Assembly (NCBI GenBank): GCA_015680685.1 | Contig: MNCI01002555.1 | Coordinates: 691,419-755,418, forward strand | From: Gnetum montanum | Lineage: Eukaryota; Plantae; Gnetophyta | Length of the DNA stretch: 64,000 nt | Reading direction: 5' to 3' | Shown: positions 6,749-53,840 of the stretch, one piece after another | Position numbering within the stretch: position 1 is the first letter of the stretch | Layout of the letters: each line of letters opens with the position of its first letter | Notes under the pieces: model-generated | What the model saw: only the letters and a program-made list of their open reading frames with translations | Database searches by the model: none | What the model was told of the DNA's origin: nothing | Program-made: the position numbers and the translations under genes

Positions 6749-6754
6749 GTTTTT

Positions 6755-6771
6755 TGGCACTAGAAGGAGGG
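6755..6771 (+). promoter_or_regulatory. Primer binding site, tRNA-Asn type (TGGCACTAGAAGGAGGG)
   Basis: Lies just downstream of the LTR. Complementary to the 3' end of plant tRNA-Asn(GUU), ...CCCTCCTTCTAGCGCCA, with one mismatch. Confidence 0.85.
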
Positions 6772-7007
6772 CTTTCATAGCTGATCTGCATTTTATGGGT
6801 AGTCTTGTAAGCTGTCTATACCACCCATTGTCAATCAACGTAAACGTAATACTTCCAAGGCTGTTTACGAAATTGTGTGGTGCAGATCAGTCGCATCGAT
6901 GATTCCTTTGGAATCCTACAAGATAGAAAGCCCCGATTATTATCTTAGGTTGCCTTTGTCCTTCCCATCTTTACCTTTATCATCATTATTTCTGAATCAT
7001 GTAGAAA

Positions 7008-10000: not shown

Positions 10001-11693
10001 CCCCTCCTTGGCCCAAACTAATGAACTACCCATTCCCAAGAATTTTAAGCTAGACTGATTCTGCGACTACCATCAACTATGTGGTCATGACACGGATTAC
10101 TGTTGGGCATTGAAAGATGAAATTCAACGTATGATTGATCAAGGTGACCTGATCTTAGACAATAGTAGTCTAGCTCACCCAGAAAACCAAGCCATGCATG
10201 TGTACCAAGACTCATTAAATGTGAACAACGCAGGGTACACAATTAACGCAATAGGAGCAAAGGGTGATGATCAGGCGTAGCTGAAATAGCCTTTCATGTT
10301 GCGAACATATCCTCGCTCTCCCCAAATAATGGATCCATCAGCATCGGTGAGCAGTGCTCCAAGGAAACCTTTTATCCTTAGAGGCCTCTCCTAGAAAACT
10401 TCTAGACAGCCCCCTATCGGTAAAGCCGTGGCCCAGCCCGTGCCTACCCCTAAGGCTCCTTTTGTCATCAGGGTGTCAAAACCATTAACTTTCCCTCCTA
10501 TTCAAGGGCACACCTCCAAGCCAATCTCCCGATCTCAACTTAACGAAAAAGGAGAAGAAAGGATGACAACTGGTACGGCCAAGGACTGTCTTATGCTGGG
10601 GTTTCCCAAGCCTAAACCCCTTCCTTCTATACCCTTGGCCCGATCTTCTAAAAATGGAAAAATTACATGAACGCAACCATCTCCTCCTAGCCAAAAGAAA
10701 CATAGCCCTCGACTGAATGTCACTCCTCCCCAAGAAATTCGTGTCCTAGAACGAATGGAAGAGGAAAAGGGCGATAAGCAGCCAGATCATGGGCGGGATC
10801 TCTTCGACGCCTTTACACAAGTCAAACAGGCTCTAAAATAGAAAAATACAACATTGAGCCTTTATGACTTACTCATGACATCACAGAAACATCGTGAGGC
10901 TACAGTTCGCATGCTAACGTCCATACCCATGGATGAAAGCCTACTGGTGGATGAAGAAGCGATTCATTCCATTATGCTTCCTCTCGCAGCTGAGAAACCT
11001 AGGCCTTCCTTATTGATCTTCCACAATGAATCCATTAAGGATGACCCGAAAAAGGGTCAGGTGACAATGGCGTCCATGTTCATCACCATCTGGGTTGGCC
11101 AATACCGAATTCAGAGGGTGCATGTGGATGATGGGGAAACCACTAATGTCATCCCATATCCCATAGTGGATAAGCTAGGCCTAATCGATCAGATCATTCC
11201 TACCACGATGTCATGTTTAAAGTCATTCAACGGGGCACAAGTGCAAGTTAAAGGCACATTGCACATCAACTTTGTGGTAGGGGAACAGTTCCCCACAGAC
11301 GCGATGTTTATTGTCATCGAAGAGATTCCTGGTTTCAACTTGATCCTGGGGAGGTCTTAGCTGGCTCAACTAAGGGCAGTTTCATCACCTATCCATCGAG
11401 AAATCCATCTTCCCTACATAGGAAGAGAAGTGATCATCCACGGTGATGAAATAACCGCTCAGGCTGTTAACAACATAGAAACAGAACAGGGGTCAGAAAT
11501 TGAAATGTTTGAAGATCAGTCCCTTATCTGAATACTTGAACAAGCCAAAACAGTGGCTAATGATAGCCTAACTTGGGTTGAACTACCATTCCCAGAGGAA
11601 GAATGTGATGTGGAAAAAAAGGATCGTAAATCCCCTCGTCTTTATGCATCACTAAAAATAAAAGAGATCAAGAAGCAATTATAGGGCTAGCCA
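7008..11693 (+). pseudogene. gag: gag-protease of element A
   Basis: Capsid motif FTKYNGEGDPNIHL...ALDWYRALP; knuckle FCDYHQLCGHDTDYC; protease RVHVDDG...FNLILGR; many stops. Confidence 0.88.
8900..10726. other. Exact ~890-bp duplication flanking a 43-N gap (probable assembly overlap artefact)
   Basis: 8900-9791 is identical to 9835-10726 (offset 935), with Ns at 9792-9834. Confidence 0.85.
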
Positions 11694-11919
11694 GTAAGCT
11701 TGGTCATCTAACTGTCGTCCAGTTTACGTGTATTTTCTTTCATCATGTTATCACATCTTTGCTTTACAAACACTCATCTTATTTTTATGCTTACTCTTAT
11801 TCCTTGTGCTTCCACCAGCTGTTCTCATTTATGCTTATGTTTTTTACATTCCCACTAGTTATCTTGGTTATTCTTAACTTTATCTAAAAATTAATCATGT
11901 ATGCTTTGCACCTGAGTCC

Positions 11920-12380
11920 TCCATGGCCCGCAATGACCTTAAACTATTCAGGGCCCGAAACAGCCTTAAACTACCCATGGCCCGCAATGGCATTAAACTA
12001 TTCAGGGCTCGAAACGTCCTTAAACTACCCATGGCCCACAATGGCCTTAAACTATTCAGTGCCCGAAATGGCCTAAAACTAATCATAGCCTGCCATGGCT
12101 TAAAAATGGCTATTTAATGTTATTTATCCTTTCACACACCACATATGTCCAAAGCCCAAAATGACCTAAAACTATACATGGCCCAAAATGGCCTAAAACT
12201 ATCTATTTAAATCATAGTTTACGCCTGAACTAATCAAAGGCCTGAAACAGCCTAAAACTAGTTACCGTATTTATGCTTTACACCTAAATTATCTATTAGG
12301 TCGCAATGACTTTAAACTAGTAATTTCATTTACGCTACATGCTTAAAACTATCTGTCATTCCTTATAGCATCAAAACCTA
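11920..12380. repeat. 27-bp tandem repeat (AATGGCCTTAAACTATTCAGGGCCCGA) with alternating 54-bp higher-order unit, degenerating downstream
   Basis: Directly visible. Reverse-complement homolog at 50065-50620. Confidence 0.85.
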
Positions 12381-12509
12381 ATTATTTATGCTTTACATAA
12401 AATGAAAACAACAAAAGAACATTAACTTAGACCAAATTTGCATTAAAGTGTCAAAGAAAAATATTGTCTTTCCCATCATAAAAAATGAATTGTGGCTAGT
12501 ATCGCCACA

Positions 12510-15500
12510 CTAGCCATCTCCTTTGTCCCCACTATCACCTGTATCCCTAAGCTCAATCTCCACTCCGAGTAAATTGTCCTCATAGGGGCCACCTTTTTTA
12601 GGTGTCATTTCTTTGTGAAAATGTCCCTCACTACTAGGCTCTTCTATATGAGGTTGTTTTCCATGGTGTTTATTATCATCATTACACTCCATCCCCTGCA
12701 AACCCTCCTCATGAGGACCACCATCCACGTTGGGTTCATCTCACTGAGGAACCTCCTCAGGTCGTTCCTGCAATTAGACATAATACGCATATTGATATCG
12801 CGATCAAAACTAGGTATGATAAAAGGCATAATAAAACAAATTAGCTATGATGGTCCTACATCGGTAGCAAATGGGATTTGTTCTAAGCCAATCCACAGAC
12901 GTTGCATAATTTCATCCTCGGTAAGCTCAGACCAAACCCTGTCTCCTAGATTAGCTCCAGCCTTGACTTTTCCTTTCTCCACAAGAGTCCATCAGGGTGG
13001 TTCGGGGAAGAAGGAAGGGATGGTTGTCTCCCCTCCAAGAAGATCTATTTCTCATTCCAGAGAGGCACTCACCATCACTTGCTCCTGGAACTTTTCAAAT
13101 GCACTGGAAGCACCAATAACGTTGAAGAATAGTTAAAGAGACTAAGCCTCGATGGTAGAGTCCCTGTACTATTAACGATAGGCAGCGCATTCCTGCTTGT
13201 AGACATATTTATGGTCTTTCTACGTCTACCCCCATTCTTGCACACTTGCGCAAAAGTCCTTCCAATCTTGATTTTTTTGAGCCAGGAGATCCATTTGCAT
13301 CCGCTACTCAACTAGTTCACGGCTGGTTTGGATACTATTTTAGATGACCATCCAATAACGGGTGTAATCCATAACAGTTGTCTGCCAATCCTCGTTGCCT
13401 GTCCCCTGAGCTTGCAGGAATTCATTCCGCAACCTCAAATCCCCCACTTCATCTCCTAGAGCCGTCCTCTCTTTCTCCAACCTTTACAATCTCTTCCAAA
13501 GATTTTCATTTACACTTTGACATTCCCACAAGGAGCGGGTCGAGTGTACCATACATTTACACATGTCTTCGTAAATGCTGCACGGCACGACGGATGCTTC
13601 CTATGAGGGTTCATCGGTGTCTAAATCAATAGGCTCTGATAGATCCCATATGAGTCGAGCTCCTAATAACATAAGATAGTGGTTAGGTGTAATTAGGTAC
13701 CATAGTATCACGATGGAGTAACTTTTGCATAATGATCATGGTGTACCCACTTCAGGATCGATTTGCTCCATGCAACTGATCATATCTTGGACGACCCCCT
13801 CCATAAATGTGAATTTATCAGGAAATTCACCCCAAGACTGAGTCGTCATTGTTGACAAGTGTACGTCCTGGTCACCTATTATGCAAAACAAGCTCCGTAT
13901 GAGAACATAATTGAAACATTACAATGACCAATATAACCTTTAGAAGCAATTTCCTAGAGTCGAATATGTCATAAAAGTTAGCCTTACAGAGTCACCAATT
14001 ATTTACCTCCTCTTGTCTGGGCCGAAAGGACATCAGCATCTTCCACTGCTGCTCCCTTCTCATGCATGAGAACCTGTGCACTGCTTGTCATGTTGACCAC
14101 AGCCTCTTCTTCCAAGGCCAAGGCCTCTTCCTCACACCGCAAAACCATAGCCCCTGTTTCAGGGATTAACCTTTCCATAACCTTCTCCTTCGCTATCACA
14201 TAATGTTCTCAGTTAATACAGAATTTTGGCTCTAGTTTAGTACATTACGACATAAGATTGTCTATACCCAGCATAACTGTAATCATTATCACATTCTTTT
14301 TCTTAACTGCTGGAGGATTAGTGCTCCGAAACTTGACTTGCATCCTCTGCCTCGCACCACTTGCTGGCTCGCCAGACTCCTCGGTCAAACAAGGCTTCAT
14401 CCGGGGCACCGACAAGTCCACTATCTCATTTGCCAAGTGCTTCTCCCTTGACACATCACTAGTATAGGAATGGAGCACCCCACCCACATTGTCTTGACCC
14501 TGCGTTTGAGGTGCTACCATGTTTTTAGTCATTACTGACAATGACTCCCCGATTCCTTCAGGAGGGTCCTGCGACCAGACAGTGTCAAAGATATGGGAAA
14601 TCCATGGTTTAGAAATCTAGTTGTGGTCCTGCTGCACCCAGACTCCATTCCTTTGGACCACCAGAAACTTGGCAAAGCACTGGAAGCAAGCTATGAAAAA
14701 AGGAAAAATGCATGTTGAAACAGGACTCAAGCTTCTTGCAAAGCTTGACCATTTCAATGCGCAGGCCTTTGGCAAAATAGTTGGCCCAATTGAATTACGT
14801 CCCCTCCTCCATGACCTCTCACATAATGCGAGCTTGCTCTATGGTGAGGAATCTCCCTTGGGAGAGTGTCTTGGGGAAGGCCCGGGCTCAAAAAAGAGGG
14901 TAAATAGTGTTGGCCACGTCCAACTCAATCCCTTTGGCAGGAATTCCTTTGGATTTCTTCCGAGCCCCTAGCCACTCCTCTATCTCTTCCTGGTACTTGG
15001 AGCTCCTCTTTGACTTTTCCTCTATAGGAAAGCCATCAGAGGGGACCTTGAAGATATCGGCAAACAGCTGAGCGTCGATGTCAAAATTTACACGTATGTT
15101 ACGCACACATATGTAGAGACGCTCAGCTTCTTTGTTAAAGGAGTTGAATAAGGTCAACATCTCACCCACAGTAGCATTAGAGGTTATGGCCAAGAATAGG
15201 TCCATTAGTCCAACCTCTCAAAGGTTATTGGTCAAAACAACTGGGGGGCTCTATGGCCGAGCCAACGTTGTGCCTCCTTTATGTCACTGTAGCAGAAAAA
15301 GATATTGCTTGCATCACGATCGGAAGCCATGATCGTAATTTTCCATGATTCCTTGATTGCACACATAAAACAATAGCTAAGACAAGATAGAAAAAAATAA
15401 AATAAGACAACTTCACACATCATCACTAGCTAATAACATTGACACCATTCATCATCACAACGAAGTTTACCAGGTTCGAATGGCAAAGGAAATGAAGGGA

Positions 15501-16935
15501 TTTTCCTTTGCATGTTGATGACAGTGAGGGGAGGATCCAAGGTCCATTCTTTATCCAACCATCTGATATTTTTACATCTAGCAAAGAAGTCAGCATAGTG
15601 GGTTGGGTATTCTGGAATTTCAAATGCTAGTTGTTCCATGATAGCGGCCCGCACGTTGCTAATAGCAGTAAACTCGCCTAACGCCCTTTTAGTCAATGAC
15701 AAGGTATCATTATCGTCCAAGAGACCGTTGTCATTGATGAAGAATCTACATTATAGAAAATGGGCAAATTCTTTACGCTCAACATAAATTTAAACAATAG
15801 TTAGCGCATTGACATACATCAAAACGATAAAAACTTAGATTCTTACCCGCCAACGTAATACACGGTACCAGGTGGGTTCTAGAAATAGGTTGTGAGGTAA
15901 CAAGCCACAAACAGAGTATTGTAGGAATGATAGCAATTGAATCTAGGAACCTCCCAGATCCAACTCAAATACCTCAAACCTTTGGCGCTTTGTTCACGGT
16001 CTTGCACCCGCGTAGTCTCAATCTTGTCGTCCATTAAAAACCCCAAGACGCCCTGTGTTGAACCAGCCAGTAGCATCTCCAAGATAGCCGCAGCTACATC
16101 ACCTGGTAGATGCAACTAGATGATTATGCTGTAGTTACAAAGCAGAAACTGCAAGAACCCTCATGTGCCCCTTCGGAACCACACCGCCTCCCCCTTTATA
16201 CGAGCATGAGGAGGAGGAACATTGGCTATGGGGACATGCATGCAGCAGAGAACCCCCATGATGTCCAAAATGATTAGGATGGGCTTTAACATAATACTAT
16301 ACAGCAAAAAAAAAATTACAATTAGGTAGAACATTTAGACATGAACCAGAACATTTATACATGCTAAATTAAGGTTTTCCTGATTCCCCGAAAACTATAG
16401 GTTCCACCAAAAACGCATAGCCAGAATTGCCCAAACCCTTGCAACAGCTCAAGGTTTGTCTTTGACAATGGCGATGAAAGCGAAACTGTGTATTTTTCCA
16501 ACATAACATGTAACCGTTATGGGAATAAAGGAAAAGAAAACAAAACCATGATTATACTATCCACCAGCTATAATACCTAGTCTCTTCAATTATACACGAC
16601 ATTCGCTCAGTCTTACTCAAGGTTACCTAAATCCTCATAACGATATGAGGTTCATCTCCAATAGTGAAGATGGAGGTAATATCGCAAATCACAACAACTC
16701 AACCCGTGTAAACAAACATCTACGATCAACGCAACATACACATTCATGGAAATAACACACAACCATGACACCAAAACAAATATAACAATAGTGTGAAAGG
16801 CTAGACGATGACTTATCGGTTCAGCAAAGTGACTTCTCGAGCCTCGACTCTTGCCTGTGAAGCCTGCTGCAATCTCTCTTGCACTTCATTGATCCTTGCC
16901 AGTTTAGCATTCTTCCCCTTGATCTTTGGTGTCAT
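12510..16935 (-). pseudogene. Antisense 8-exon gene of element A (FCP1/NIF-like, PMD/Transposase_32-like, coiled coil, acidic tail)
   Basis: Exons ~16817-16935, 15847-16296, ~15430-15745, ~14306-15357, ~14005-14193, ~13750-13875, ~12846-13663, 12510-12767. Homologous exon by exon to 45604-49936. Confidence 0.75.
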
Positions 16936-17513
16936 AGTTGCAATCGAATGAGTTTTCACAAAACCCTCTATTTATGCCTTGCTTCTGCTCCTGTTCTGCT
17001 ATAGCCAAAATCAAAATTTGTGATATCTGTAACCCATTTCAAGTATGAACCATTGGTTTATAAAAAAAATTCTTGAAACTGATTTCTCTTTCTGCCCAAT
17101 CGATGTGGAACTTTCCTGAAACGCCGGTGTTAGTATGACATGAAACGCGAAGATCAAGGCATTAATTTCGTAGATATCGTGTAGATTGTGGTCCAAAATG
17201 ATCCTAAACTAATACATTTATCATCTTGTAATCCGGCCTCATTAACTACAGTTTGTATAGAAATTCAAATTTCATGACACGCTAGACATGCCACGTTTCA
17301 CTTTTCATCTTATTTCATATGCCAGCATCTAGGAAGTCGAACTCGTTATTGTTTTATGAACCAAGCATATTTGTAACGGTACACTAAGATCTTAAACTAG
17401 AAGCCTCTTTAATATATAACCCTGATGCAACAAAAATAGAAACAAACTCTTGTCGTTTACAGATTGGCAGAAAAACAATGTAACAACCTCCTTTTTTATT
17501 GGCATTTTTGCAG

Positions 17514-18678
17514 GATGATTCACAAAAGGATGCAGCGCGCAAGCGTGCCAAGCAATACATCATCATTGGAGACAGTACTCTCTGTAGATGCTCCTTTGAT
17601 GGGGTATTTCTCACCTGCATCAATAATGACCAAGCATGATGGATAGTTAGCAAGGTCCACGAGGGGCTGTGTGGGGGACACGTGGCCCCATGAGCCATGG
17701 CCGCTAAAATCAGACACCTAGGGTACTATTGGTCGTACATGGAAAGAGATTGCCTTATCAAGGTTAAGACATGTGATATGTGTCAACGTTACGTAAACCT
17801 AATACACGTGTTACCAACTGAGTTACACATTACTCATATTACTTGGCCATTCCAACGATGGGGACTGGATATCATAGGTCTCATCACACCTAAATCTTCC
17901 GTAGGACATAGCTTCATTATCACCGCCACCGAGTATTTTACAAAGTGGGTTGAAGCTATCCCCCTATGAAAGATTACATCTCAGTAGGTTTGCCATTTCA
18001 TCCTAGACAATATTGTAACCAAATTTGGGCTCCCTATGACTATTGTGACTGACAACAGGCCATAATTTAGTAGCACAGAAACCAAATCTTTTTGCGATAA
18101 CCTTGGTATCAAGCAATATTTTTCTTCACCTTATTACCCGCAAGCAAATAGTCAAGAAGAAGAAAAAAACAAGGTAATTATCAATCTACTTAAGAAGATG
18201 GCATGAAAAAATCCTCTACGTGCTATGGGCGTATCGTACAATGTGCAGAACAGCCACAGACAAGATGCCCTACAACCTAGTCTACAGATCTGAAGTAGTG
18301 TTGCCCTTGGAATTATAGGTTCCCTCATTACGGATGGTCCTATCTATGATTATAAATGAGACTCAACACAATGAGTCTAAAATCATGGATTTAGACTCAG
18401 TGGAGGAGAAACACATCCAGACGCTCGACATCATTGAAAGATATCAAGATAAATAGAGACAGAAGCATCAGCACAACCTGCATCAATGACCAATCAAGAA
18501 AGGAGATTTAGTTCTCAAGGCCGTTCGTGAACCAGTAGGCAAGTTCTCTGCAAACTAGCAAGGCCTTTTCCTAGTCATCAACATATATGGCAACAGAGCA
18601 TTCAAGTTAGTGGATATCGATGACAACAAGTTATCAAATCCAGTAAATCATCTGTATTTGAAGTAGTACTACATCTAA
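17514..18678 (+). pseudogene. Integrase of element A, directly after the pol splice acceptor
   Basis: HHCC region (VHEGLCGGH...CDMCQ), WPFQRWGLDIIG, TEYFTKWVEAIP, IVTDN, and C-terminal GPF motif. Confidence 0.9.
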
Positions 18679-18707
18679 AGATCAACTTGGTTCAAACGCA
18701 AGGTAAC

Positions 18708-19105
18708 AAACGTCCACTACGACGTAATACTGGCAAAGTTGTAAACGTCCGCTATGACGTAAAACTGGCAAAGTTGTACACGTCCGCTATGACGTAAAAC
18801 TAGCACTTCTTGCACACATCAGCCAAGACGCTAAACTGGCAAAGTTTTCGATTGTCCGCCATGATGTGAAATTGGCAAGGTAAGCATACATCTACTGAGA
18901 TGCTAAACTAGCATAGACTTGTCCCTGGGTCACGACATAAAACTAACACCCACAGCACGGTCTGCTGGGACCATAAACCAGCTCTTCGATCATCCGTGAC
19001 GACGTAAAACTAGTAGGTTCCTATTTGCCCAGATGTTAAACTAGGACCATGGCCTGCTAAGGCTTAAAACCAGCAACAACAGTCAACTAGGACTCAAAAC
19101 TGGAA
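18708..19105. repeat. 3'-UTR ~35-bp degenerate tandem repeats (GACGTAAAACTGGC core)
   Basis: About 12 units. Homologs at 41130-41490 (B) and 34110-34490 (D). Confidence 0.8.
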
Positions 19106-19109
19106 TCCA

Positions 19110-19790
19110 TCGAGCATTCCATGAAGCAAGCGAGCATGATCATTCTTGCACAGCATCCCTACCAGATGGAACGGGTAAGGCTTTGGAATAGACGCAATAC
19201 CGTTACCCCACCGGCATCCTGCTAATTCCTCGGACATGCCGAAAGGCATACTACTTACTCCTCGGAGATGTTGCTACGACGATCGCTCTATAGGTGCACC
19301 TCCTGGGACTAACTTCACTACTTGGGGCCCCAAAGAAACTATGGTCATCCATAGTCTCAGTGGCCTCCATCCATCATCTTCACCAAACTCGGGCTTAGCA
19401 GATTCATCTGACTTGTTCTTTGCCCAATCATTTGAACAACATGAATCTGGATATCAACAGCGGTTGCACAAATCACGACACCAACATTGGGATCCTTGCT
19501 CCCTATTATGGTCCCTGTTTCATGGCTTGTGCTCTCTTTTTCGCTTTGGATAGCGCTTGATTCAATAGCCTCCCTCAGCGATTAGGACGACTGCTTCTAC
19601 GCTCTGCTCTCTGTTATGTTTTGCAGGTTACTTGCTACGACAGCGTTGATTGAAAATGCATTCATTAGAAGGTGAGGTGTCACGGCATCTTGAAGTGGTT
19701 ACTCAGACTAGCCTGGCCACTTAGGAGTGAAAATCCTACCTATCCCCTTATCAGACACATTACTTCGCTTTCTCTTCCCTTTGTCCTCAT
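19110..19790 (+). pseudogene. Extra sense-strand ORF downstream of pol (env-like position), unknown function
   Basis: MPKGILLTP...; homologous to the 163-aa ORF at 40510-41001 and to 33329-33920. Confidence 0.45.
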
Positions 19791-20283
19791 GACCGCCTTT
19801 ACCCCCTACTTTGCTTGTACAGAGCGTGAACATTCAAACAAACTCTTTTGCATTTTTGTATCCATGAACTAGCGTAACGCAACTTGCCTAGTGGAATGTA
19901 GTTTCAAAAAAAAGGGGGGGGCAAAGTTTGGAAAAATAGATGTAAAACAACTCATCCAGGCCATGCGGACATAACACAACTCGTCCACGGAATCCCTCTA
20001 TATATAGTATGACGACGTAACCTCTCATAAATACATTCACGGAAGAACACTATGACTTGTTTGAAAAAGTCTCATGTTCATGTTCTTGAGTCTTCCTCAA
20101 ACTTTTCTTCCCTCACGTCTGTAAAATCCCCCCTATACTTTCCTCCCCACATTACCTTTGCACTTCTAGGTTTTGACAGAGCGACATTTGAGCAATCTCC
20201 AATGGACGCCGTTGGTGCCTTTACCTCTCTAGTGTTTCGTATTCTTTGTCAATATATTTTAGACACACCCTCTAAACATCAAC

Positions 20284-20296
20284 AAAGAGGGGCCAT
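20284..20296 (+). promoter_or_regulatory. Polypurine tract of A (AAAGAGGGGCCAT)
   Basis: Immediately 5' of the TG of the 3' LTR. Confidence 0.8.
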
Positions 20297-21700
20297 TGAA
20301 ACACCATAAAAATTTTCGAGGCCTCAATGGTTCGGTGAAATCTAGCAACTCAAGCGAGGAGTCGCGACAAGGCGCAACAAATGAACTTCAGGAGACAGAA
20401 CAAAATGATGGGTGCACGGCGGCAAGCCTTCCACTTTGCGAGTTTTTTATGTCTCAAAATCTCAACATTTAGCATATTACGCTGCATTACACAACATAGC
20501 GCAACACTGCGTTATGTAGCGTAATATCAAAGATAGTCAACCACGGCATCAAAGATGGCAAACATTCAAGACTCCAACAACCTAGCTCAAGGCTTAAGCA
20601 ACGATCTGCAGCATGCTGCACATTTTAGTGGGTTTTCTTTCCTATTTAAGGGGCCCATTATGCTGTGTTACACAGTGTAGTGTAATAAAACCCCAAAAGG
20701 GATTGATTAGAAATAGAGGAAGTGCAGCAAAAATATTTCAATTTTTTGCAGTTTCGTTATTTTACGCTGAATCACGCTATGATGCATAATGTAGTGTAAT
20801 GCAATGTAATACAAGTAACGGTAGCACAATTCAGCCATCAGTAATTCATACGCCACAATACGCTCTCTAGCGTATTGCAGCGTAATCAAAAGATAGTTTG
20901 TTGCCAGAGTCCAAACAATAGTGGTTCGCGACGCACTACACAGCATGGTGCCGTAAGCTTAAACGACAACACGTCAAGTCAATGGAATCTTATAAGTTTA
21001 GGACACGCATCATCTAAACTGCATTTTTCTACTAACGCTAACCTTATAAATGCCCTAGTTGATGAAGATCAAAGGGTTGGCAAAAATTTCTCTTTCAAGG
21101 TTGGCAAGAGAGCAAAAAAGAGGACCAACGATCATGAGAACATCGGAGGCGATTGGCAAGAACTCTTGATCAGAAACAATCGGCTACCAGATATTCTTCC
21201 CTCAAGTCTGACCGTCTTGCACCCAGATTGGCTAGAACAAGGTAGATTGACCCTCACTTGTTTCGTCTTTAGATAACTTTCTTGCTGTTGACATGTGCTT
21301 CATCCAAACTGAAGCCTGCTTATAATCATTGTATCCAAGATGTTGTATTCATAAATTAAATCCCAAATCTTGTGGTCGCACTCTCGCACTCTCTATAAAT
21401 CTGATTCCTTGTGTCCTATTTATATAGATTTGGCAATTGCATCTGAATTGTTTACATCATTTTCAATTGTTTTCGGGATTAACAATATTGCATCTCCTCT
21501 TAAAGACTTATCATTTTTCCATTAAAATATTGCAAAAAATTTTACTAATTAAGTAAGTCCTTGTCTGATTGACAAGACCGTTCAGGGCACCTTGGATTCA
21601 TTTCTTTCTCCATCACCACCCTCGCACAGATCTGGGGTTAGAACTGTGTACATGGACCTTCGTTTGGTATTTCCAGCAACCAATGTTTTCCGTCGTCACA
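20297..21700 (+). repeat. 3' LTR of element A
   Basis: TG...CA termini; matches 5346-6748. Confidence 0.92.
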
Positions 21701-23249: not shown

Positions 23250-23470
23250 ACTTGTTCTAGTTTAAGGCCATTTCGGGCCATGCATATCAATTTAAAGTCA
23301 TGAAGGGATTTAGCAATGACGTTCTAGTTTAGGGCCATTTTGGGCTACAAGAAAAAAAGAGGGATTTAAACTATTTCAATGGGTTTTAAAATGAACCGGC
23401 CATTCCTGGCTATGGCTAGTTTTATGTCATTGTGGACGTGTAGTAGTTTAATGTCATTTTGGATGTGTAG
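23250..23470. repeat. Degenerate GTTTAAGGCCATT-type repeats at the PR-proximal end of the intron of C
   Basis: Same core as the repeats at 11920-12380 and 50065-50620. Confidence 0.6.
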
Positions 23471-23475
23471 TAATT

Positions 23476-38547: not shown

Positions 38548-39915
38548 TGTAACGACAGAAAGCATCGATCACTGGAAATACTAAACGAAAGTCCGCGTAC
38601 ACAGTTTTAACCCTGGATCCGTGCGAGGACCGTGCTGGAGAGAAAATGAATCTAAGGTGCCCTGAACGGTCTTGTCGATTAGATAGGGACTTACTTGATC
38701 AATAAAAAATTTTGTGATATTTGGGTAATAAAATGATGGATCTTTACGGGAAAATATGATATCGTTAACTTAGCGAGCAATCAAAAATGACGAAGTAGAT
38801 TTACAACGATTTGCAAGGTTCATATAGGTGAGACTCAAAAGATCGGATTTAGAATGCGAGCAACCCTGAGATCTGGGATTCACCTCATGAAACAAAGTAT
38901 ATTGAATATAACTATTACAAGCAGACTTCAATCTAGACGAAGCATGTGCCAATAACAAGAAACTGTTCAAAGATGAAGCAAGCAAAGGTCGATCTACCTC
39001 GTTCTAGTGGTGTACAAAGGAGCCGGTCTAAAGTAGAATGTCTATCAACCTGCTATTCCTGACTGGAGATTCTTGCCAATTGCCTTCGATATTCTTATGA
39101 TTACTGATTCTCTTTGTTCTCTTGTCAAAATCTATCAACGATTATCAACGGAAGGGAAAAATCGCTCATAGAGAAAATTCATTCAATCTTAGGAGAAATT
39201 TTTTGCCTCTCGGTGGTCTTTGTCAACCGAAGCATTTATAAGGTTAGGGTCAAGCGAAATACGTGGTTTAGATGATGTGTGTCTTGAATTTGCAAAGTGT
39301 CATTGACTTGAAGTGGTGGTTGTTGAAGCTTGTGGCACTACACCACCTTACACTCTAAAGCGTAACGCTACGTAAACTGCTCTTGTTGGAGCTTTGTTGA
39401 CAGGCAATTTCTTGATTATGCTACAATACGCTGGAGAGTGTATTGCTCCACATGGACTACTGATGCTTCACTATGTCTATATTATGCTGCACCATACTAG
39501 ATTACGCTGCACCACGCTAGATTACACTTCATAGCGTAACTCAGCGTAAAATAGCACACTTGCAAAAAATCGAAGCGTTGCTGAAGTTTTTGGGCATTTG
39601 TCATCCTTGATGTTGTGGAGAATTGCTTTCTAACATTACGCTGTGTTACGCCATGTTGCGTAATGTAGCGTAATATGCCAAAAAAATCTAACGTTCTCAA
39701 AACAAAAATAATTTGCAAAGTCGAAAGCTTGCCGCTGTGCACCCATCGTTTTGCTCTGTCTTCTGGAATTCATTTGTACAGTGCCGCGTAGCATGGCAGA
39801 ACAGGCCTTTAATTTGAAAAGGAACTTGTTGTGCCATGCCTTATTGTGACTCCTTTGCCTGAGTCACCAGCTTTTTGCTGAACCGCCAATGCCTCAAAAT
39901 TTTCACGGTGTTTCA
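38548..39915 (-). repeat. 3' LTR of element B
   Basis: Minus strand TGAAACACC...GTTACA; homologous to the A LTRs; PPT AAAAAAGAGGGGCCAT at 39916-39931. Confidence 0.85.
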
Positions 39916-41519: not shown

Positions 41520-44500
41520 TTAGATGTGGTACCACTTTAGATACAGATGATTCACTGGATTTGGTAGTTCGTTGCCATCGATATCTGCTAACTTGAATGC
41601 TCCGTTACCGTATATGCCAATGACCAAAAAAGGACCTTCCCAGTTTGTAGAGAACTTACCTACTAGTTCAAAAATAGCCTTAAGAACTAAGTCTCCCTTC
41701 TTGATCGGTCACTGGTGTGGATTGTGCCAGTGCTTCTATCTTTGCTTATCTTGATATCTTTCAATGGTGTCAAGCATTTGGATGCGCTTCTCCTCTACTA
41801 AGTCTAAATTCACGATCCTACACTTGTTGTGCTGAGTCTCATTTATAACCATGGAGAGGACCATCTGCAATGAGGGAACCTATAATTCCAAGGGCAACAC
41901 TGCTTCAGATCCATAGACTAGGCTATAGGGCATCCTGTCTGTACCTGTTCTGTAGGTCGTACAATATGTCCATAGCACATAGAGGATTTTTTCATGCCAC
42001 CATTTTTTATTGTTGCTGAGCATCTTCTTAAGCAGATTGATGATTACCTTGTTTGTTGCTTTTGCTTGACCATTTTCTTACGGGTAATAGGATGAAGAAA
42101 AAGACTACTTGATACCAAGATTATCGCAAAAAGATTTGGTTTTGGTACTACTAAATTGTGGCCCATTGTCAGTCACAATAGTCATAGGGAGCCCAAATCT
42201 GGTTACAATATTGTCTAAGATGAAATGGCAAACCTGTTGAGATGTAATTTTCTATAGGGGAATGGCCTCAACCCACTTTGTGAAATACTCAGTGGCGATG
42301 ATAATGAAGCTATGTCTTGCGAAAGATTTGGGTGTGATGGGACCTATGATATCTAGTCCCCATCATTGGAATGGCCAAGTGATCTATGTAGTGTGCAACT
42401 TAGTTGGTGACACGTGTATTAGATTTGTGTAACGTTGGCATGTGTCACACATCTTAACCTTAACAAGGTAGTCTTTTTCCATGTACGGCCAATAATACCC
42501 TAGGTGTCTGATTTTAGCAGCCATTGCTCGCGGGGCTACGTGTCCTCCACATAGCCCCTCGTGGACTTTGTTAACTATTCACTGTGCTTGTTCACTATTA
42601 ACGTAGGTAAGAAATACCCCATCGAAAGAGTGTCTACAAAGGGTACTATCTCCAAGGATGACATATTTCCTAGCATGCTTGCGCACTGCATCTTTTTGTG
42701 CATGTGTTAGCTCGTGTGGTGGTTCGCCATGCAGAAGATAAGTTTTAATGTCATTGTATCATTCTAGCGTTCCTCCCACGTTTAATGAAGAAATCTGCGT
42801 CACTTGAATGATAGGCTCTGTACATTCTATCATTAAAGCAAACCAAGTGGCAAACAAGTGTGGTGGCACGTTTAATGCCAGTTTTGCCAGTGCATCAGCA
42901 ATAGCATTTTCGTTACACGGCACGTGTTGGACATCGATTGTGTCATGAATTGTTTCCGGAGATCTTTAGCCATATCACAGTAGGGCTATAGGTGCACAAC
43001 CTTGCAAGTGTAGACTCCTGTGATTTGATTAATGAAGAGCATCGAATTGCCTTGGATTACTAGGTGTTGAATGTTGAGTTCCTTGGTTGTCAACAATCCT
43101 TTGAGGAGCCCCTCATACTCTACCATGTTGTTCATATAAGGGAAGGTCAAGTGGTAAGCCGATGGATGCACATCCTTAGGAGAAAGCGTAATAACAGTGG
43201 CAGCATTGCTGCCTCTAGTGGTTGAAGCTCCATCAAAGTATAATGTCGCTTCAAGGCCTATTGATATAGTGCTTAAACTGTGTACATGTTCATCCAGGAA
43301 TTCTAGCTCTATTGTAGCTTGATTGTTAATCGGTGATGTTGCTAATTGGTTAGCTATGGCCTGATCTTTGGTGGACGACTAGCCAACATAATGTAAATTG
43401 AATTCTTCTGTGATAGCCTTCCAACGAGCTATTCTACTACTCTCATATAGGTTGTTCGAGATAGCTCGTAGCACATTATTTCCTCAAATGATATTGACCT
43501 GACTGCGAAAGAGATAATGCCTACATTTTTTCAGTGCAAAAACCAATGCCAAACAATTATGCTCCACTTCATTGTACCTTGTCTCGTACACAAATAGAGC
43601 ATGACTAACGTAATAGATAGGGGCTTCTGACCCATCGTTCCTTTTCTAGCAAAGTAATGCAACTATAGACACATCTGAGTTAGCTAGATAAATGTAGAAA
43701 GGTTGATTCCTTTGTGGTGGAAAAACCGTTGGTAAATGTTGCAACTCTTCTTTTAAATTGTCAAATGCACACTAGCAGTCATCAGTCCATTCAAAATTAA
43801 CACCCTTTTTTAGAAGATGTTGCATAGGGTGTAATTTATCTGTTAACCTTGAAATGAACTACCTGATGAATTGAAGCCTGCCCTATAACCCACGTAGTTC
43901 CTTGAGGTTTGTTCGTGGCATTAAATCAATGATGGCCTTAACCTTGTCAAGGTTGACTCAAATGCCAGTCTATGATACCACAAACCCCAACATGCATCCA
44001 GTTTTGACCCCGAATACGCATTTCTTTAGGTTAAGCCGTAAGTCATGTTTGAAACATTGTTTAAGGACTAACTCTAGGTTTTTTGAATGATCTTCTGACT
44101 TTATAGATTTGACAGCTATGTCATCTACATAGTCGTTCAATCTCCCTAAGAGATAATTGCTAAAGATGTATGTCATGGCTTGTTGGTACGTTGCTCCAGC
44201 ATTTTTTAACCCGAAGGGCATCATGGTGTAACAGAAGGTTCCCCAAGGTGTCATGAATGTTGTGGTCAATTGGTGCTTTGGGTTAATACAAATTTGATTA
44301 TAGCCTGAAAAATCATCCATAAAGGACAGGAGCACGTGACCAGCTGTTGTGTCAATCAATTGGTCGATACTCGGTAGCGGGAAATTATCCTTAATCATAG
44401 CTTTGTTCAGATCCCAGAAGTCTATGCAGATGCGTATACCTCCCATTTTCTTAGAGACAACTACGATGTTGGACACCCAGTCTAAGTAATCGACCGCATA

Positions 44501-45018
44501 AATGAAACTAGCCTAATACAACTTAGTGATTTCATTATGCACTACTAGCGCAATTTCCAGCTTAATTTTTCATGCCTTCTGTCTAATTGGTTTGATGTGT
44601 GGGTCTAAGATTATGTTGTGCTGTATTAATCTTGGGTTTAAGCCTAGCATGTCTTCATATGTCCACGCAAATACAGCAACATTGTTTTGGAGAACTAGTG
44701 TTATGTCACTTTGCATCTATTGGTCTAGGAGAGAACTAACCCTAAGAGTTTTATTTTCACCCTTGTGCGTAACCACAGGGACCTCGCTAAGGGGATCCTC
44801 AGTTACATCACCAACCTCCAGGTCAAGTGTTCGAGCCAGATGTTCTGGCCAGTCTAGAGATGTTTCTAATGTTGCTATGGTTACATCATAGAGGGAAAGG
44901 TTTGTTCCTACTAGCGTGTGATTGAACTATCAAGACTAAGGGTGTGGATAAAGCACCTCCCATGTGGCCCTGTCAAGACTAAGGGTGTGGATAAAGCTAC
45001 ATCCATTTGCGACTGGCC
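41520..45018 (-). pseudogene. pol: pol (RT-RH-aRH-INT) of element B
   Basis: RT FMDDFSGYNQI/YVDD (43970-44476); RH PIYYVSHAL; aRH LYFDGAS...NNMVEYEGL...NAIADALA; INT 41520-42700. Confidence 0.92.
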
Positions 45019-45603
45019 CTGCAAAAATTGCCAAAAATGGAAGTTGTTACATTGTCTTTCTACCAATATGTTGAATGATAAATGTTTGTTTTATTTTTGC
45101 ATCAGAATCGCGTGTCAGAGAAGTTTCCAATTTAAGGTCTTAGTGGATGGTTACAAATACGCATAGTTAGTAAAAAGAAATTACTAGCTAGGCTTCCTAG
45201 ATGCTAGCGTATGAAATAGGATGAAGGGTGTAACGTGGCATGCCTAGTGTGTCGAAATAATTGGATTTGAAATTTTGTATAGACTTAAGTTAATGTGACC
45301 AGATTATGAGGTGATAAGCTATGTATTAGTTTAAGGTCATTTCGGACTGTAACTCACGCGATATCTACGAAATTAATGCCCTAATCTTCACGTTCCATGT
45401 CATACTGACACCATCATTTTGGGAAAGTTCTGTGTCGATTGAGCAGAAAGAATCAGTTAGTTTCAAGCATTTTGTTTATAAACCAGTGGTTCATACTCTA
45501 AACATGTTACCGATATCACGAATTTGGATCCAGCTATAGCAAGAAGGAAGCGTAAGCAAGGTGTGAGCGGACGACTTTACGAAGATTTTGTTCGATTGCA
45601 GCC

Positions 45604-48600
45604 ATGGCACCAAAGGTTAAAGGAAAGAACGCCAAGTTGGCCAAGATCAACGAAGTGCAAGAGAGTCTACAGCGGGCTTCACAGGCCAGAGTAAAGGCTC
45701 GGGAAGTTACTCCGCTTAACTGGTAAGTCACCGTCTACTCCTTTGCACTATTGTCACATTTGTTACAGCATCATAGTTGTTTTTATTTTGAATACGCATG
45801 TTACACTAGGCGTTAATGTTTTTTTACGTGAGCTAGGCTATTGTGGTTTGACAAAATTTGTATTGTTACGAAAGTTTAGGGAGTATGGAGTAATGTTGTG
45901 TAGATGTCATGTATAGCTGGAAAAAATCTAAGTACTGTATCCATGCATGGCGTAATCGGAGTCCTGTTTTCTATTCTTTTTTTCATCATTTGTAATAGTT
46001 ATCTAATATGCTGGGGTAATACGCAATGTTGGTTTCATCGCCGTTTTCAAAGATAGCCCTTGAGCTGTTGTAAGGATTTGGACAATTTTGGTCATGCGTC
46101 TCCAGTGTACTCTGTAATTTTCTGAGAATTAGGCGAACCCTAGTGTAGCATGATGAATTTTTCTATCTAAATAGTTTGCCTGACAGTAATACATTTTTTA
46201 TCATACAATATTATGCTAAAGCCCATCCTAATCGTTTTGAACATCATGGGCGTTCTATGCTGCATTCATGTCCCCGTGGACAATGTCCCTCCTCCTCATG
46301 CTTGTCTAAAGGAGGAGGCGGTATGGTTCTGAAGGGGTGCGTGGGATTTTTTGCAATTTTTGCTTCGTAATTACAATGTAATCGTCTGGTTGCATCTACT
46401 AGGTGATGAAGCTACTTCCATTTTAAAGATGCTATTGGTTGGCTCGACACAGAGCATCTTGGCATTTCTGTCAGACGGTGTGATCAAAACTGTGAAGGTG
46501 CAAGACCATGAACAGAGCGCTAGGGGTTTAAGGCATTTATACTAGATCTGGGAGATGCCCAGGTTTAATTGTTATCATGCCTATAACACTTTGTTCATGG
46601 ATCATCATCTCACAACCTACTTCCAGAACCCCCCTAGTACTGTGCATTACAAAGGTAGGTAAGTTTCGTTTCGCTTCGCAGTATTGTAATGTGCTAACTA
46701 CTGTTTAGATGTGTACTGAGCGTAAAGGGATTGTCTATGGTGTAGGTTTTTCATCAATGAAAGCAGCCTTCTAGGCAATAATGACACATTGTCGTTGGCC
46801 GAAAGGGCTATAGGGGAGTTTACTTCTATCAGCAACGTGTGGGCTACCATCATGGAATAACTAGCGTTTGAGATCCTAGAATACCCTACCCATTATGCCG
46901 ACTTCTTTTCTAGATGTAAGAAACTCAGATGTCTGGATAGGGAGTGGACTTTGGACCCTCCCCTTACCATTGCAGATGTGTGAAGGAAAATTACTCCATT
47001 TCCTTTACCTTTTAGGCCTGGTATGCTTTATCATGATGATGAATTGCGTCAATGTTATCAGTTCATGTCAACTTACCTATTGTTTTGTGTTAGCAGTTAG
47101 GAAATCACAGGAGATTACGATCATGGCCTCCGATTGTGAGGCCAATAATCTCCTCTTCCATTATGATGATATAAAGGAGGCCCAACATTGGCTCGGCCAT
47201 AGAGCAGCCTGAATTGTAGTAACCAATAATATTCAGGAGGTTGGACTGATGGACCTTTTCTTGGCCATAACCCCTGATGCTACTGCAGGTGAAATGTTAA
47301 CCCTAGTCAACTCCTTCAATGAAGAAGCTGAGTGTCTCTACATACGCATGAGTAATGTGCACGTAAATTTTGACATTGATGCTCAACTATTTTCTTATCT
47401 CTTCGGCATTCCCTCTGACGGTTTTCCTATAGATGAAAAATCGAAGAGGAGTGCCAAGTACCAGCAAGAGATAGAGGAGTGGCTAGGGGTTAAGAAGGAA
47501 GTCAAGGGAATCCCTGCTGAAAGGATCGAGTTGGTGGTAGCCCATACTATTTACCCCATTTTTTGGGCCTGGGCCTTCCCCAAGACACTCTTGAAAGGGA
47601 GATTCCTCACCATCGAGCAGGCCTAAATTATGCGAGAGGTCTTAAAGAAGGGGACACAATTCAATTGGGCGAGCTATTTTGCCAAAGGCTTGTGCGTTGA
47701 GATGGTTAGGCTTCGCAAGAAGCTTGAGTCCCATTTCAACATGCATTTCTCCTTCTTCATAGCTTGGTTTTGGCATTTTTCCGAATTTCTAGTAGTCTAG
47801 AGGAATGGGGTCTGGGTGCAACAAGATCGTAGTCAGATTTCCAAACCATGGATCTCCCATATCTTTAGCACTATCCGGTCGCAAGACCCTCTTGAAGGGA
47901 TCGGGGAGTCATTGTCGGTAACAACTAGGAGTATGATGGCACCTCGAATGTGGGGCCAAGATAGGATGGGTGGGGCACCCCCCTCTTACACTGGCGATGT
48001 ATCGAGGGGGGAAGCATCTTGCTGCCGAGATAGTGGATTTATCAGTGCCACGGAAAAAGCCTCGCTTGACTGAGGAATCTGCCAAGCTAGCGGGTGCCGT
48101 GGTGAAGAAAATGCAAATCAGGTTTAAGAGGAGTAATTCTCCAGGTGGTAAGTGGTGAAATGTACCAATGGTCATGATCTATGTAGAGACACCGTTGCAT
48201 AGCATAATATTCGTTGATCAAAAGTAAAATCTTATGTTAACTAGCTATATTGGATGATAGCGAAGGAAAGGGTTGTGGAATGGTTGACCCCTGGAACAGG
48301 GGCTATAGTCTTACAGTGTAGGGAAGGGGCCTCAGTTTCAAAAGAGGAGGTCCCAGTCAATAAGGTGAGGAGTGAATAAGCTCCTACGTGGGAAGAGAAA
48401 GTAGCGGTCGAGGATGCCAAAGTTCTTTCGGTTGGGACTAAACAAGGCAAGTGGTTTGTTACTTGATAAAATTAATTCTTATAGTATAGTAGACTTTAGA
48501 AAAATTCTAAAGGTTGTGTTGGTCATCGTAATGTCTCAGTCATGTCCTTATATGGAATGTATTCTATGTAACAGGTGACCAGAGTGTACACTTGGAAACA

Positions 48601-49936
48601 GTGGCAACTCGATCCTGGGATGAATTTCCTGATAAATTCACCTTCATGAAAGGCATCGTCCAAGACATGATCAGTTGCTTAGAGTGAATTGATCCTGAAG
48701 CTAGTACGTTATGGTCATTATGCAGAAATTATTTTACTATGGCATTATGCTACCAAATCATGTCAAACTGTCATTTTATGCTATTAGGAGCTCACCTCAG
48801 ATGGGATCCATAAGAGCTTATCAATTTAGACGCCACCGAACCCCCATTAGAAGTGACCGTCGTGCCACACAAGATTTACGATGAGATGCATAAATGTGTT
48901 GTACACTCAACTCGCTCCTTATGGGAATGTCAAAGCGTAAACGAGGACCTTTGGAAGAGGTTGCAAAGGTCAAAGAAGGAGAGGGTGGCTCTATGTGATG
49001 AAGTTGGGGATTTAAGATAATGGAATGAATTCCTGCAACCCCAGGGAATAGGAAGCGAGGACTGGAGGACAGTTATTATTGATTACGCTCGTTATTGGAT
49101 TGTTTTCAGGAACAATCTCTAAACTAGTCGCGAACTGGTCGAGCAGCATATGCAAATGGACCTCCTGGCTCAGAAGAACTATGACTGGAAGGACTTTAGC
49201 ACGAGTATCCAAGAGTGGGGGCATATGCAAAAATATCATAAATAGGTCTACAAACAAGAAAGTGTTGTCTATCATCAACATTATAGGGACTCTGCCGTTG
49301 AGGATTAGTCCCTTTGGCTATTCCTCGACGTTATTGGTGCTTCCAAAGCATTTGAGAAGTTCCAGGAATAGGTGACGGTGAGTGCCTCTCCAAAAATGGA
49401 AGTGACTCTTCCCGAAGGTGAGACTACCATCCCTTCTTTCTTCCTTGAACCACCTTGATGGACTCCCATCGAAAAGAAGAAGGTGAAGAATGGAACTAAT
49501 CTAGGGGATGGAGTTTGGTCTGAGCTCACTGAGGATGAAATCATGCAACGTCTGTGGATTGGCTTAGAACAAGCCTCCTTTACTGCTGATGTCAAACCAT
49601 CATAGGTTAGTTGCAATATTATTGCATTTTTGTTATACCTAGTTTTGACAATGATGTTAATATATGTATGATGTCTGATCGCAGGAGCGACTGGAGGAGA
49701 ATCCTCAGCAAGGTGAAGCTAATGAGGATCCTCATGAAGAGGGTTTACAGGAAATAGAGCATAATGAAGCTAGTCGATGCCATGGTGAACAACCCCCCAC
49801 TAAAGAGCCTGACGAAGAGGGTTGCCCTCACGAAGGGGTTCCTCATGCAAAGGGTGGCCCCTATGAGGATGACCTCCTTGAAGTAGAAGTTGAATTGGTG
49901 GATACAAGAGATAGTGGTAACAAGGAAGACGCGTAG
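45604..49936 (+). pseudogene. Antisense 8-exon gene of element B (FCP1/NIF-like, PMD/Transposase_32-like, coiled coil, acidic tail; ~1100 aa)
   Basis: Exons 45604-45722, 46209-46658, 46746-~47060, ~47095-48147, 48261-48446, 48575-48703, 48788-49605, 49685-49936. Splice phases are consistent at all junctions except the ambiguous 3/4 junction. Confidence 0.78.
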
Positions 49937-50064
49937 CATGGCTGAATTAGCCTTGGGTTTTATTGTGGTGTAATGAAACAAGAGACAATATTTTTCTTTT
50001 AACGTATTTGATATAGATTTTGGTGTTAATTTTGATTGGCTTCTTTGTTGTTAATTTCGGGTCT

Positions 50065-50620
50065 TGAATAGTTTAAGGCCATTTTGGGCCCTTGCTATAT
50101 GAGTGAGTGAAGGAATCAAATAAACATTAATTCACCAATTTTAAGCTATGGTAGGTTGTGATTAGTTTTAGGCCATTTCGGGCCATGGATAGTTTAAGGC
50201 CATTTTGGGCCCTGGATAGTTTAAGGCCATTTCAGGCCTTGAATAGTTTAAGGCCATTTCGGGCCCTTGCTATATGAGTGAAGGAATTAAATAAACATTA
50301 AGTCATTGATTTTAAGCTATGGCAGGTTGTGATTAGTTTTAGGCCATTTCAGGCCATGGATAGTTTAAGGCCATTTCGGGCCCTAGATAGTTTAAAGCCA
50401 TTTCGGGCCCTGAATAGTTTAAGGCCATTTCGCACCCTGAATAGTTTAAGGTCATTTTAGGTCCTGAATTTAGGTACAAAGCACAGACAAAATTTAGATA
50501 TAAGGTGTAAACTAGATTCAGGTATATAGCATAAATGAATTTTGGGTTGTAAGCATCAACAAAATTCAGATACAAAGCGTAAGTGAAATTGCTAGTTTAA
50601 GGCCATTTCGGGCCTTTTGA
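50065..50620. repeat. 27-bp tandem repeat (GTTTAAGGCCATTTCGGGCCCTGAATA) plus a ~180-bp local duplication
   Basis: Directly visible; homolog of 11920-12380. Confidence 0.85.
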
Positions 50621-53158: not shown

Positions 53159-53165
53159 GTTCTTT

Positions 53166-53182
53166 TGGCGCTAGAAGGAGGG
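53166..53182 (+). promoter_or_regulatory. tRNA-Asn PBS of E (TGGCGCTAGAAGGAGGG)
   Basis: Perfect 17-nt complement to the plant tRNA-Asn 3' end, 7 nt after the LTR. Confidence 0.9.
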
Positions 53183-53275
53183 CTGAAAATTAAGCCTCTA
53201 GGTTCATAAGCCTTATACTTTTAGTACATCAACAATTATTTGTAAGGCTTAAGAATTAGATACTATTTTCAGTTC

Positions 53276-53840
53276 ATGACCAAGAAATTTGATAGTTTGG
53301 AAAGTTTCAAAGTTTCAAAAGATATTCTAGATTCTAAGACTGATTCTTCATCAGAAGAAGAACAAAAGAAAGTTTTTGAATTGGGAACAAGTAGTGGAGT
53401 GAAAACTAGAAGATCAAGAAGATCACCCATTATATCTAGTTTATCAATTCGTAAGAGAAGATCTAGAAAGTCTAAGAGTTCAACATTTCAAAGGAATAGG
53501 ATGGAAAATCCTTGGCAAAGAGTTACACCTCTAGGATTTCAAAATTACAATGATATTCCTAAGGTAGTTTACAAATATTTGCCTAAGCCTTTTATTCCTG
53601 GAAAAGCTTATTTAGCTGAAGAATATATTCATATGTTTGAGTTAGCTTTAGCTCATGCAAATATTCAACATGAAGATCAAGCTTGTAGGTTGTTTGTATC
53701 AAATCTAAAGGATATGGCTCAGATTTGGTATTCAAACTTAGCAAGTAATAGTATTACAAGTTGGGATGACATGAAGAATATTTTCTTAGCCTAGTTTGGT
53801 AATCAATTAGATTAACAATTAATTACCCTTAAATATTTCC
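53276..53840 (+). pseudogene. gag: N-terminal part of gag of element E
   Basis: EDQACRLFVSNLKDMAQIWYSNLASNSITSWDDMKNIFL is a Retrotrans_gag motif; truncated. Confidence 0.8.

Follow-up and report, generated by a model that had tools for sequence, protein, structure and literature searches.

A likely pseudophosphatase domain of the NIF/FCP1 type in a predicted antisense gene of a Tat/Ogre-like retrotransposon of Gnetum montanum

Why does a plant LTR retrotransposon carry, on the strand opposite to its own genes, a sequence that resembles a phosphatase domain, and has this domain been kept as an enzyme, as a binding module or as mere cargo? This question is raised by a locus of Gnetum montanum that we analysed within a window of 64,000 nucleotides (assembly GCA_015680685.1, contig MNCI01002555.1, positions 691,419 to 755,418 of the forward strand; all coordinates below are those of the window). 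The original prediction had assigned 46209..46860 to a NIF/FCP1 domain of the HAD class that was captured by a retrotransposon and probably became a pseudophosphatase. The window holds two copies of the sequence, copy A and copy B, which together with read and contig tallies constitute the material analysed here.

The carrier element

Copies A and B share 73% identity over 5 kb, rising to 77% over the part from integrase to LTR. Their landmarks are:

38548..39915, minus strand: 3′ LTR of copy A, with the PPT immediately upstream
42081..44920, minus strand: pol of copy A, with RT (PF00078), RNase H (PF17919), a second RNase H (PF13456) in the Tat aRH position and integrase (PF17921 and PF00665), by Pfam
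45019..45027, minus strand: TTTTTGCAG, acceptor-like site before pol in copy A; the same at 17505-17513 in copy B
50054..50469, no strand: 27-nt tandem-repeat array of copy A, between the end of gag-PR and the antisense gene
5346..21700, plus strand: copy B, an element with both LTRs (5346-6748 and 20297-21700)
11921-12225: 27-nt tandem-repeat array of copy B, the same as that of copy A

The aRH of copy A scores 24.8 bits against PF13456 (cut-off 21.6) and lies between PF17919 and PF17921/PF00665. The order RT-RH-aRH-INT is that of Ogre and Retand, and the aRH marks the Tat lineage (PMC6317226; this and the other papers are cited for their accessible parts). Copy A lacks its 5′ part beyond ~50870. 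The LTRs of copy B are 1.4 kb long and 90% alike (K2P 0.10), and the element is flanked by a 5-bp TSD (ATTAC/AGTAC, 4/5 matching); the PBS at 6755 is one that we take to be of the tRNA-Arg type. Between the LTRs lie gag (PF03732), a protease-like region, the 27-nt array, the antisense cassette and integrase, with RT-RH-aRH deleted. Judged by aRH, LTRs, PBS, PPT and TSD, the carrier is a Tat/Ogre-like Ty3/gypsy LTR element. The antisense cassette occupies the same place in both copies, between protease and RT, and in copy B it is enclosed by LTRs, PBS and TSD.

In Ogre, a spliced intron parts gag-PR from pol (PMC4408406). Copy B has a GTAAG donor after the PR frame, and 4/4 related elements inspected have an AG acceptor-like site before pol, with no RNA joint found between the two; from its position, the TTTTTGCAG site would be the 3′ end of an Ogre-type PR-RT intron.

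The 2.3-kb RT-RH-aRH deletion of copy B begins at 17514-17518, a few bases past the pol acceptor-like site, and may be either private or the mark of a non-autonomous subfamily. An exact duplication of 892 nt at 8900-10726, flanking an N gap (9792-9834), most probably arose during assembly. Copy A loses its 5′ half to an oppositely oriented element (~51000-53800, plus strand), which has 21-nt and 24-nt tandem arrays, a PBS at 53166 and a gag-like ORF at 53246.

The predicted antisense gene

Comparison of copy A with copy B predicts an antisense gene of seven exons that together comprise 3,368 nt or ~1,100 codons:

45477..45482, plus strand: TATA-like TATAAA, ~120 nt upstream of the ATG and conserved in both copies; putative promoter
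45604..45722, plus strand: predicted exon 1, with ATG, basic N-terminus (23% K/R) and GT donor at 45723; dN/dS 0.07
46209..46658, plus strand: predicted exon 2 of copy A, putative NIF/FCP1-like (D-x-N-G subfamily) pseudophosphatase core; 0 indels versus copy B
15847..16296, minus strand: predicted exon 2 of copy B, NIF-like, with the motif I Asp kept
46659..46745, plus strand: predicted intron 2, GT..AG in both copies; 87 nt in A, 101 nt in B
46746..47020, plus strand: predicted exon 3; dN/dS 0.11
47097..48147, plus strand: predicted exon 4, without Pfam match, basic NLS-like stretch at its end, 3′ border uncertain; dN/dS 0.24
48259..48446, plus strand: predicted exon 5, with the least certain borders
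48575..49605, plus strand: predicted exon 6, without Pfam match, coiled-coil-like stretch (by eye); dN/dS 0.25
49685..49938, plus strand: predicted exon 7, acidic tail (32% D/E), then stop

A GT donor is found in at least one copy for 6/6 introns and an AG acceptor for 5/6, the borders of exon 5 being uncertain. Intron 2 differs in length between the copies, yet the reading frames on either side of it are conserved. The stretch originally proposed as one domain therefore consists of exon 2 and part of exon 3, but also includes the 87-nt GT-AG intron. Its quoted motifs are real: KPILIVLNIMGVL, WDFLQFLLRNYNVIVW, LRHLY-stop-IWE, YHAYNTLFMD and FQNPPSTV lie in one plus-strand frame (46201-46656), and DTL follows in the next exon (46747 onward). 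The motif VWFRRG is present too, though interrupted by a stop in copy A, and ILIILDIMGVL, which had been labelled as the 'A' sequence, exists but belongs to the second copy (15847-16296, minus strand). With 15 and 22 stops within 1,004 codons, both window copies are dead.

Beyond exon 2, little in the product is recognisable by Pfam: exons 4 and 6 gave no meaningful match in either copy, and neither PF10536 (Plant Mobile Domain, PMD) nor TRP28 was found. Exon 4 resembled PMD/Transposase_32 by eye, but comparison with a neighbouring PF20167-like ORF put the probability at 0.3%. No transmembrane helix was detected in the product outside the first NIF strand, a query of the protein Atlas with the gene gave no result and a bacterial promoter scan of the locus returned nothing informative. 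As a separate observation, the ORF at 29844-30212 (plus strand), with a weak match to PF20167 Transposase_32 (E 9e-7, below cut-off), probably represents the 3′ antisense extra ORF of a different element, whose pol lies at 37886-34576.

Homology of exon 2 to NIF proteins

The HMMER check against PF03031 that the original prediction had proposed came back negative: a direct Pfam search gave 0 families for copy A and detected no NIF domain in copy B or in the read-through of exons 2 and 3 (gathering cut-off 21.8 bits). Word-indexed protein searches returned 21 and 163 candidates, none at E<=0.01, and metagenome scans yielded 119 stretches for exon 2 and 162 for exon 3, with 0 confirmed. Among PDB sequences, exon 2 alone matched UBLCP1 no better than an unrelated chain (E 1.1 for both), and the two-copy profile found nothing useful.

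Profile searches gave a consistent answer. When both copies were combined in a profile of three rows and run against 1,835,955,588 proteins, 5 matches came out at E<=0.001 (range 1.2e-4 to 5.8e-4). All five fall on exon 2 and are PF03031 proteins with a D-x-N-G motif I, namely Helianthus, Bidens, Ambrosia and Sphagnum-cluster proteins plus one unnamed Logan protein. In the opposite direction, a metagenome profile made of 17 proteins that were found via the Logan match, and hence stand one step removed from the query, matched 2/324 six-frame chunks of the window, which are the two copies (E 9.5e-9 and 9.7e-7); a plant profile likewise matched these two out of 324. Profiles of the D-x-N-G subfamily reach 23-40 bits on exon 2, and all profile searches taken together span 23-52 bits, compared with at most 4.0 bits in controls consisting of 1,000 shuffles and 2 reversals. 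The alignment of exon 2 with NIF profiles is colinear over ~140 residues, at 16-24% identity to D-x-N-G homologues.

The resemblance could in principle be a product of chance, as the missing Pfam match, the best whole-library E of 1.2e-4 and the failure of ab initio modelling might suggest. This explanation is close to refuted by the convergence of 5/5 matches on a single family, by the gap between true scores and those of all 1,002 controls and by the colinearity. In line with the plant/fungal-type NIF homology that had been claimed, exon 2 is best classified, from these alignments, as a homologue of the D-x-N-G NIF subfamily, i.e. a derived relative and atypical member. The beginning of exon 3 may contribute the C-terminal helix of the domain, a weak signal of at most +3 bits.

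A structure model derived from a NIF alignment of 22 rows (pLDDT 74) displays a Rossmannoid core of the HAD type, in which a beta-hairpin follows motif I. Its match to Scp1 (Foldseek E 2e-5; VIA Z 12.9, rmsd 2.7, 129 aligned) is partly circular because the model was built on NIF sequences, and it also resembles CTDNEP1, UBLCP1 and Tim50 (Z 10-11; for Tim50, 4qqf, Z 10.0). Structure prediction, another check proposed at the outset, gives this fold under NIF guidance; a model made without NIF homologues (pLDDT 33) is unusable. By sequence, the solved structure closest to the D-x-N-G subfamily is UBLCP1 (E 2e-10), far ahead of Scp1 (E 4e-4).

A tree of 28 rows, made without 4 near-duplicate rows from metagenomes or clusters and without most duplicates from Sphagnum, did not place the donor of the NIF domain; the element branch in it measures 3.5-4 substitutions per site. 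Carriage of the domain by a retrotransposon is directly visible in copy B, whereas its capture is something we infer because the donor was not placed. In addition, proteins P0034-P0048 from short metagenome contigs are D-x-N-G NIF proteins that form a supported clade apart from the plant ones, with S/T, K and DD invariant; these residues suggest that the D-x-N-G subfamily still binds metal or phosphate despite its pseudophosphatase class.

Active-site residues

Active FCP/SCP phosphatases have a Ser/Thr in motif II and a Lys in motif III. In 20 homologues, D14, S/T64, S65, K111, D134, D135 and K139 are each found in 20/20, and position 16 is Asn in 19/20. For the element family itself, residues were tallied per site by contig depth in DNA runs X1 and X6, with 40 of 43 rows listed.

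In motif I, G17 is kept, but the pattern DxDx(T/V) is absent and position +4 is not T. This absence, correctly noted in the original prediction, is largely inherited because the closest subfamily already has D-x-N (19/20 homologues); D-x-N proteins of fungi are candidate pseudophosphatases (PMC13216928). The loss does not extend to the nucleophile: Asp at position 14 is kept in 95% (X1) and 99% (X6) of depth, the Asn of copy A being private. Position 16 is Val or Met in the element family (Val in 77% and 71% of depth in X1 and X6, respectively). In motif II, position 64 is Ser in 60%/53% of depth (X1/X6) and Leu in both window copies, and position 65 is His in place of the Ser of homologues. 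Motif III has Arg at position 111 in copies A and B, and the rows listed include no majority change there.

The two Asp of motif IV required a correction. The second had rightly been considered lost, with position 135 being Arg in 48%/53% of depth and His and Cys in copies A and B, as CpG decay predicts. The first had been taken as retained, but position 134 is Ala in 99%/98% of depth (X1/X6), and the Asp of copy A is a private change that mimics the NIF family motif. Taken together, 5/7 subfamily-invariant positions are altered (65, 111, 134, 135 and 139), including both Mg ligands, and the +2 Asn is altered as well; L10, D14, G17, the W-S motif II region, N129 and N143 are kept. In HAD chemistry, a domain deprived of its two Mg ligands and its +2 acid-base residue should have no phosphatase activity. 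Going by these residues, the exon 2 domain is likely a pseudophosphatase, and the case for loss of catalysis is stronger than originally claimed.

Could the domain instead have become an unusual enzyme, with metal-independent chemistry like that of HAD dehalogenases that use an Asp nucleophile and Arg/His? The near-universal nucleophile, a motif II Ser in over half of the depth, the conservative Arg in motif III and the strong selection described below would suit such a function. We nevertheless regard it as very improbable, given the 5/7 altered invariant positions with both Mg ligands among them, the altered +2 Asn and the fact that a buried Asp can be retained for structure alone.

Abundance and RNA

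The element family is abundant and present in high copy. In DNA run X1, 23,502 contigs fall on the cassette, and exon 2 is covered by 3,342 and 3,231 contigs in runs X1 and X6, which stem from two different organisms and in which depth does not equal copy number. RNA reads are few: 186, 87 and 27 per run of ~12.6-12.9 million on the cassette, and 24 and 9 on exon 2, in both cases mostly <90% alike. None of these RNA reads contains a splice joint of the antisense gene, and some have intron-like flanks. Run X11 favours the plus strand over 45622-49646 (summed bin depth ~47 versus 8.5), but this stems from 186 divergent reads of a library whose strandedness is not given, and run X14 is without such a bias; the X11 bias is therefore not counted as evidence.

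Several X1 contigs join 45343 to ~50068 and bypass the whole cassette, with the same short repeat motif at both ends. These joints may represent either cassette-less elements or repeat artefacts.

Selection on the cassette

Between copies A and B, dN/dS of exon 2 is 0.24 (95% bootstrap 0.14-0.36, 144 codons) and that of six exons together 0.22 (0.18-0.27, 968 codons); the pooled value omits exon 5 and the last part of exon 4. Among the controls, shifted frames gave 0.58-2.87, intron 1 treated as coding 0.61-0.72 and the upstream region 0.44-0.71; four in-frame windows of the integrase gave 0.14-0.42, to which exon 2 is similar. Indels number 6 in 3,368 exon nt versus 21 in 967 intron nt, and none of the stops in exon 2 (2 in copy A, 3 in copy B) is common to both. 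As judged from dN/dS of this single pair of copies, the NIF-like domain has evolved under purifying selection.

An alternative is that the gene is passive cargo: either a separate mobile gene, derived from a virus or a DNA transposon, or a gene of the host, which entered the spacer on a single occasion and was then multiplied passively; selection on it would predate the element. The cassette-skipping joints are in its favour, as are a related element of the window whose different spacer has no detectable homology and the occurrence of D-x-N-G proteins on short metagenome contigs. However, dN/dS was taken between element copies that are 73-77% identical throughout, so that selection would have acted while the gene resided in the element. 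Moreover, the skipping joints have sides of only 20-25 nt within repeats, and neither terminal repeats nor a transposase match (Pfam) was found in the cassette. We therefore consider passive cargo very unlikely.

Proposed function

The reading we prefer, to which we assign a probability of roughly two in three, is that the NIF domain, dead but selected, is used for binding by a regulatory protein which the element encodes and which is probably nuclear. The gene would have its own TATA-like promoter at 45477, be transcribed antisense to the genomic RNA and be spliced; because of this orientation, its introns would survive reverse transcription and thus outlast retrotransposition. It would be housed in the Ogre-type intron that separates gag-PR from pol. 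The putative product of ~1,100 aa would consist of a basic N-terminus, the dead HAD domain, a middle part, a coiled-coil-like part and an acidic tail, and would aid the element in trans; its basic N-terminus, NLS-like stretch and acidic tail give it a nuclear look. As the most likely route, the old active-site cleft, with Arg in place of a metal ligand, would dock on a host protein or phosphopeptide. Docking through an inactive NIF fold would resemble fungal Tim50, in which motif and activity are absent and which yet serves as a receptor (PMC8346121, PMC13216928).

One candidate partner is the phosphorylated Pol II CTD, which the dead domain would bind specifically, as a decoy or shield against host CTD phosphatases. 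The guided model is indeed closest to Scp1, the basic N-terminus and NLS-like stretch would fit a nuclear role and plant CPL phosphatases turn up in silencing screens (PMC8774115). On the other hand, the nearest subfamily is D-x-N-G rather than SCP/CPL, with UBLCP1 as the best solved relative by sequence; the fold matches to CTDNEP1, UBLCP1 and Tim50, none of which is a CTD decoy, are almost equal; the accessible literature credits only SSP4, SSP4B and SSP5, among 16 Arabidopsis SSPs, with CTD activity; and the element branch is very long (3.5-4 substitutions per site). A CTD decoy is thus distinctly unlikely. A broader scenario, which we hold to be unlikely as well, is that of a Tat lineage with a spliced antisense gene inside the PR-RT intron, in which a captured phosphatase would have come to read phosphopeptides without metal, its Asp retained and Arg occupying the metal site. 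As an anti-silencing protein, it would engage transcription or silencing machinery of the host that is under phospho-regulation; the Pol II CTD may be among its targets.

Relation to known systems

The element domain shares a colinear core with the D-x-N-G NIF proteins of Helianthus, Bidens, Ambrosia, Sphagnum and metagenomes and the fungal DXNXT proteins (PMC13216928). Compared to these, it lacks N16, S65, K111 (replaced by Arg), the motif IV Asp pair and K139, has a very long branch and forms the N-terminal part of an unrelated retrotransposon protein of ~1,100 aa. With the active DxDxT/V enzymes Scp1/CTDSP1, Fcp1, CTDNEP1 and UBLCP1, it would have in common the HAD Rossmannoid core and hairpin of the alignment-guided model, but it is without DxDxT/V or the motif IV DD and is only 12-19% identical. 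Fungal Tim50 has a NIF fold without catalysis (PMC8346121), as proposed for the element domain; the latter differs in belonging to another subfamily and in being element-encoded, with no evident mitochondrial targeting or transmembrane anchor.

Tat elements with antisense extra ORFs are already known (PMC7264820, PMC11963269), and so is a captured enzyme domain in Gypsy (PMC9289625). With the extra ORFs of Tat (Ogre 3′R PMD ORFs, Retand TRP28 antisense ORFs; PMC6317226, PMC11963269, PMC4408406, PMC7264820), the cassette shares a selected antisense extra gene, a tandem array, the order RT-RH-aRH-INT and the separation of gag-PR from pol. Unlike these, it lies between PR and RT rather than 5′ or 3′ of the polyprotein and has about six predicted introns; a NIF-like domain is not among the 12 CDD domains listed for Tat eORFs in the accessible text, and no PMD/TRP28 match was obtained. 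The orchid Gypsy AlkB/2-ODD ORF (PMC9289625) and the Athila LOG/YgdH ORF are, like the present case, host-type enzyme domains fixed in a Gypsy family, but AlkB is an active enzyme near host proteins, whereas the NIF domain of the element is highly diverged and likely dead. We found no report of a NIF/FCP1 (PF03031) domain or pseudophosphatase in an LTR element, nor of an extra gene between PR and RT, in a literature search that covered subscription journals thinly. An antisense gene with predicted introns and a NIF domain, lying between PR and RT, would accordingly be a variant of the Tat antisense extra-ORF genes in an unreported position.

Tat antisense extra ORFs have so far resisted functional assignment (PMC7264820, PMC11963269), chiefly because their proteins look like nothing described before. 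The antisense gene described here has a recognisable domain and a readable history, from a host-type enzyme via loss of the metal site to purifying selection in a family with thousands of contigs, which makes its function directly testable. Screens for eORFs considered single ORFs with a 250-codon cut-off and 5′ or 3′ classes only (PMC6317226); a gene with predicted introns between PR and RT would be missed by them, meaning that such genes may be commoner than catalogued.

Finally, copy B inserted into a related Tat-like element (2300-5345 and 21706-23767) whose PR-RT spacer measures ~5 kb and whose PBS (27674), gag-PR (26491-23767) and RT (from ~2272) all lie on the minus strand. This spacer holds an apparent, different antisense multi-exon gene, with a basic first exon near +3170 and an acidic last exon near +22840, that has neither a Pfam match nor homology to the gene of copies A and B. 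Antisense genes between PR and RT may hence be a trait of the lineage.
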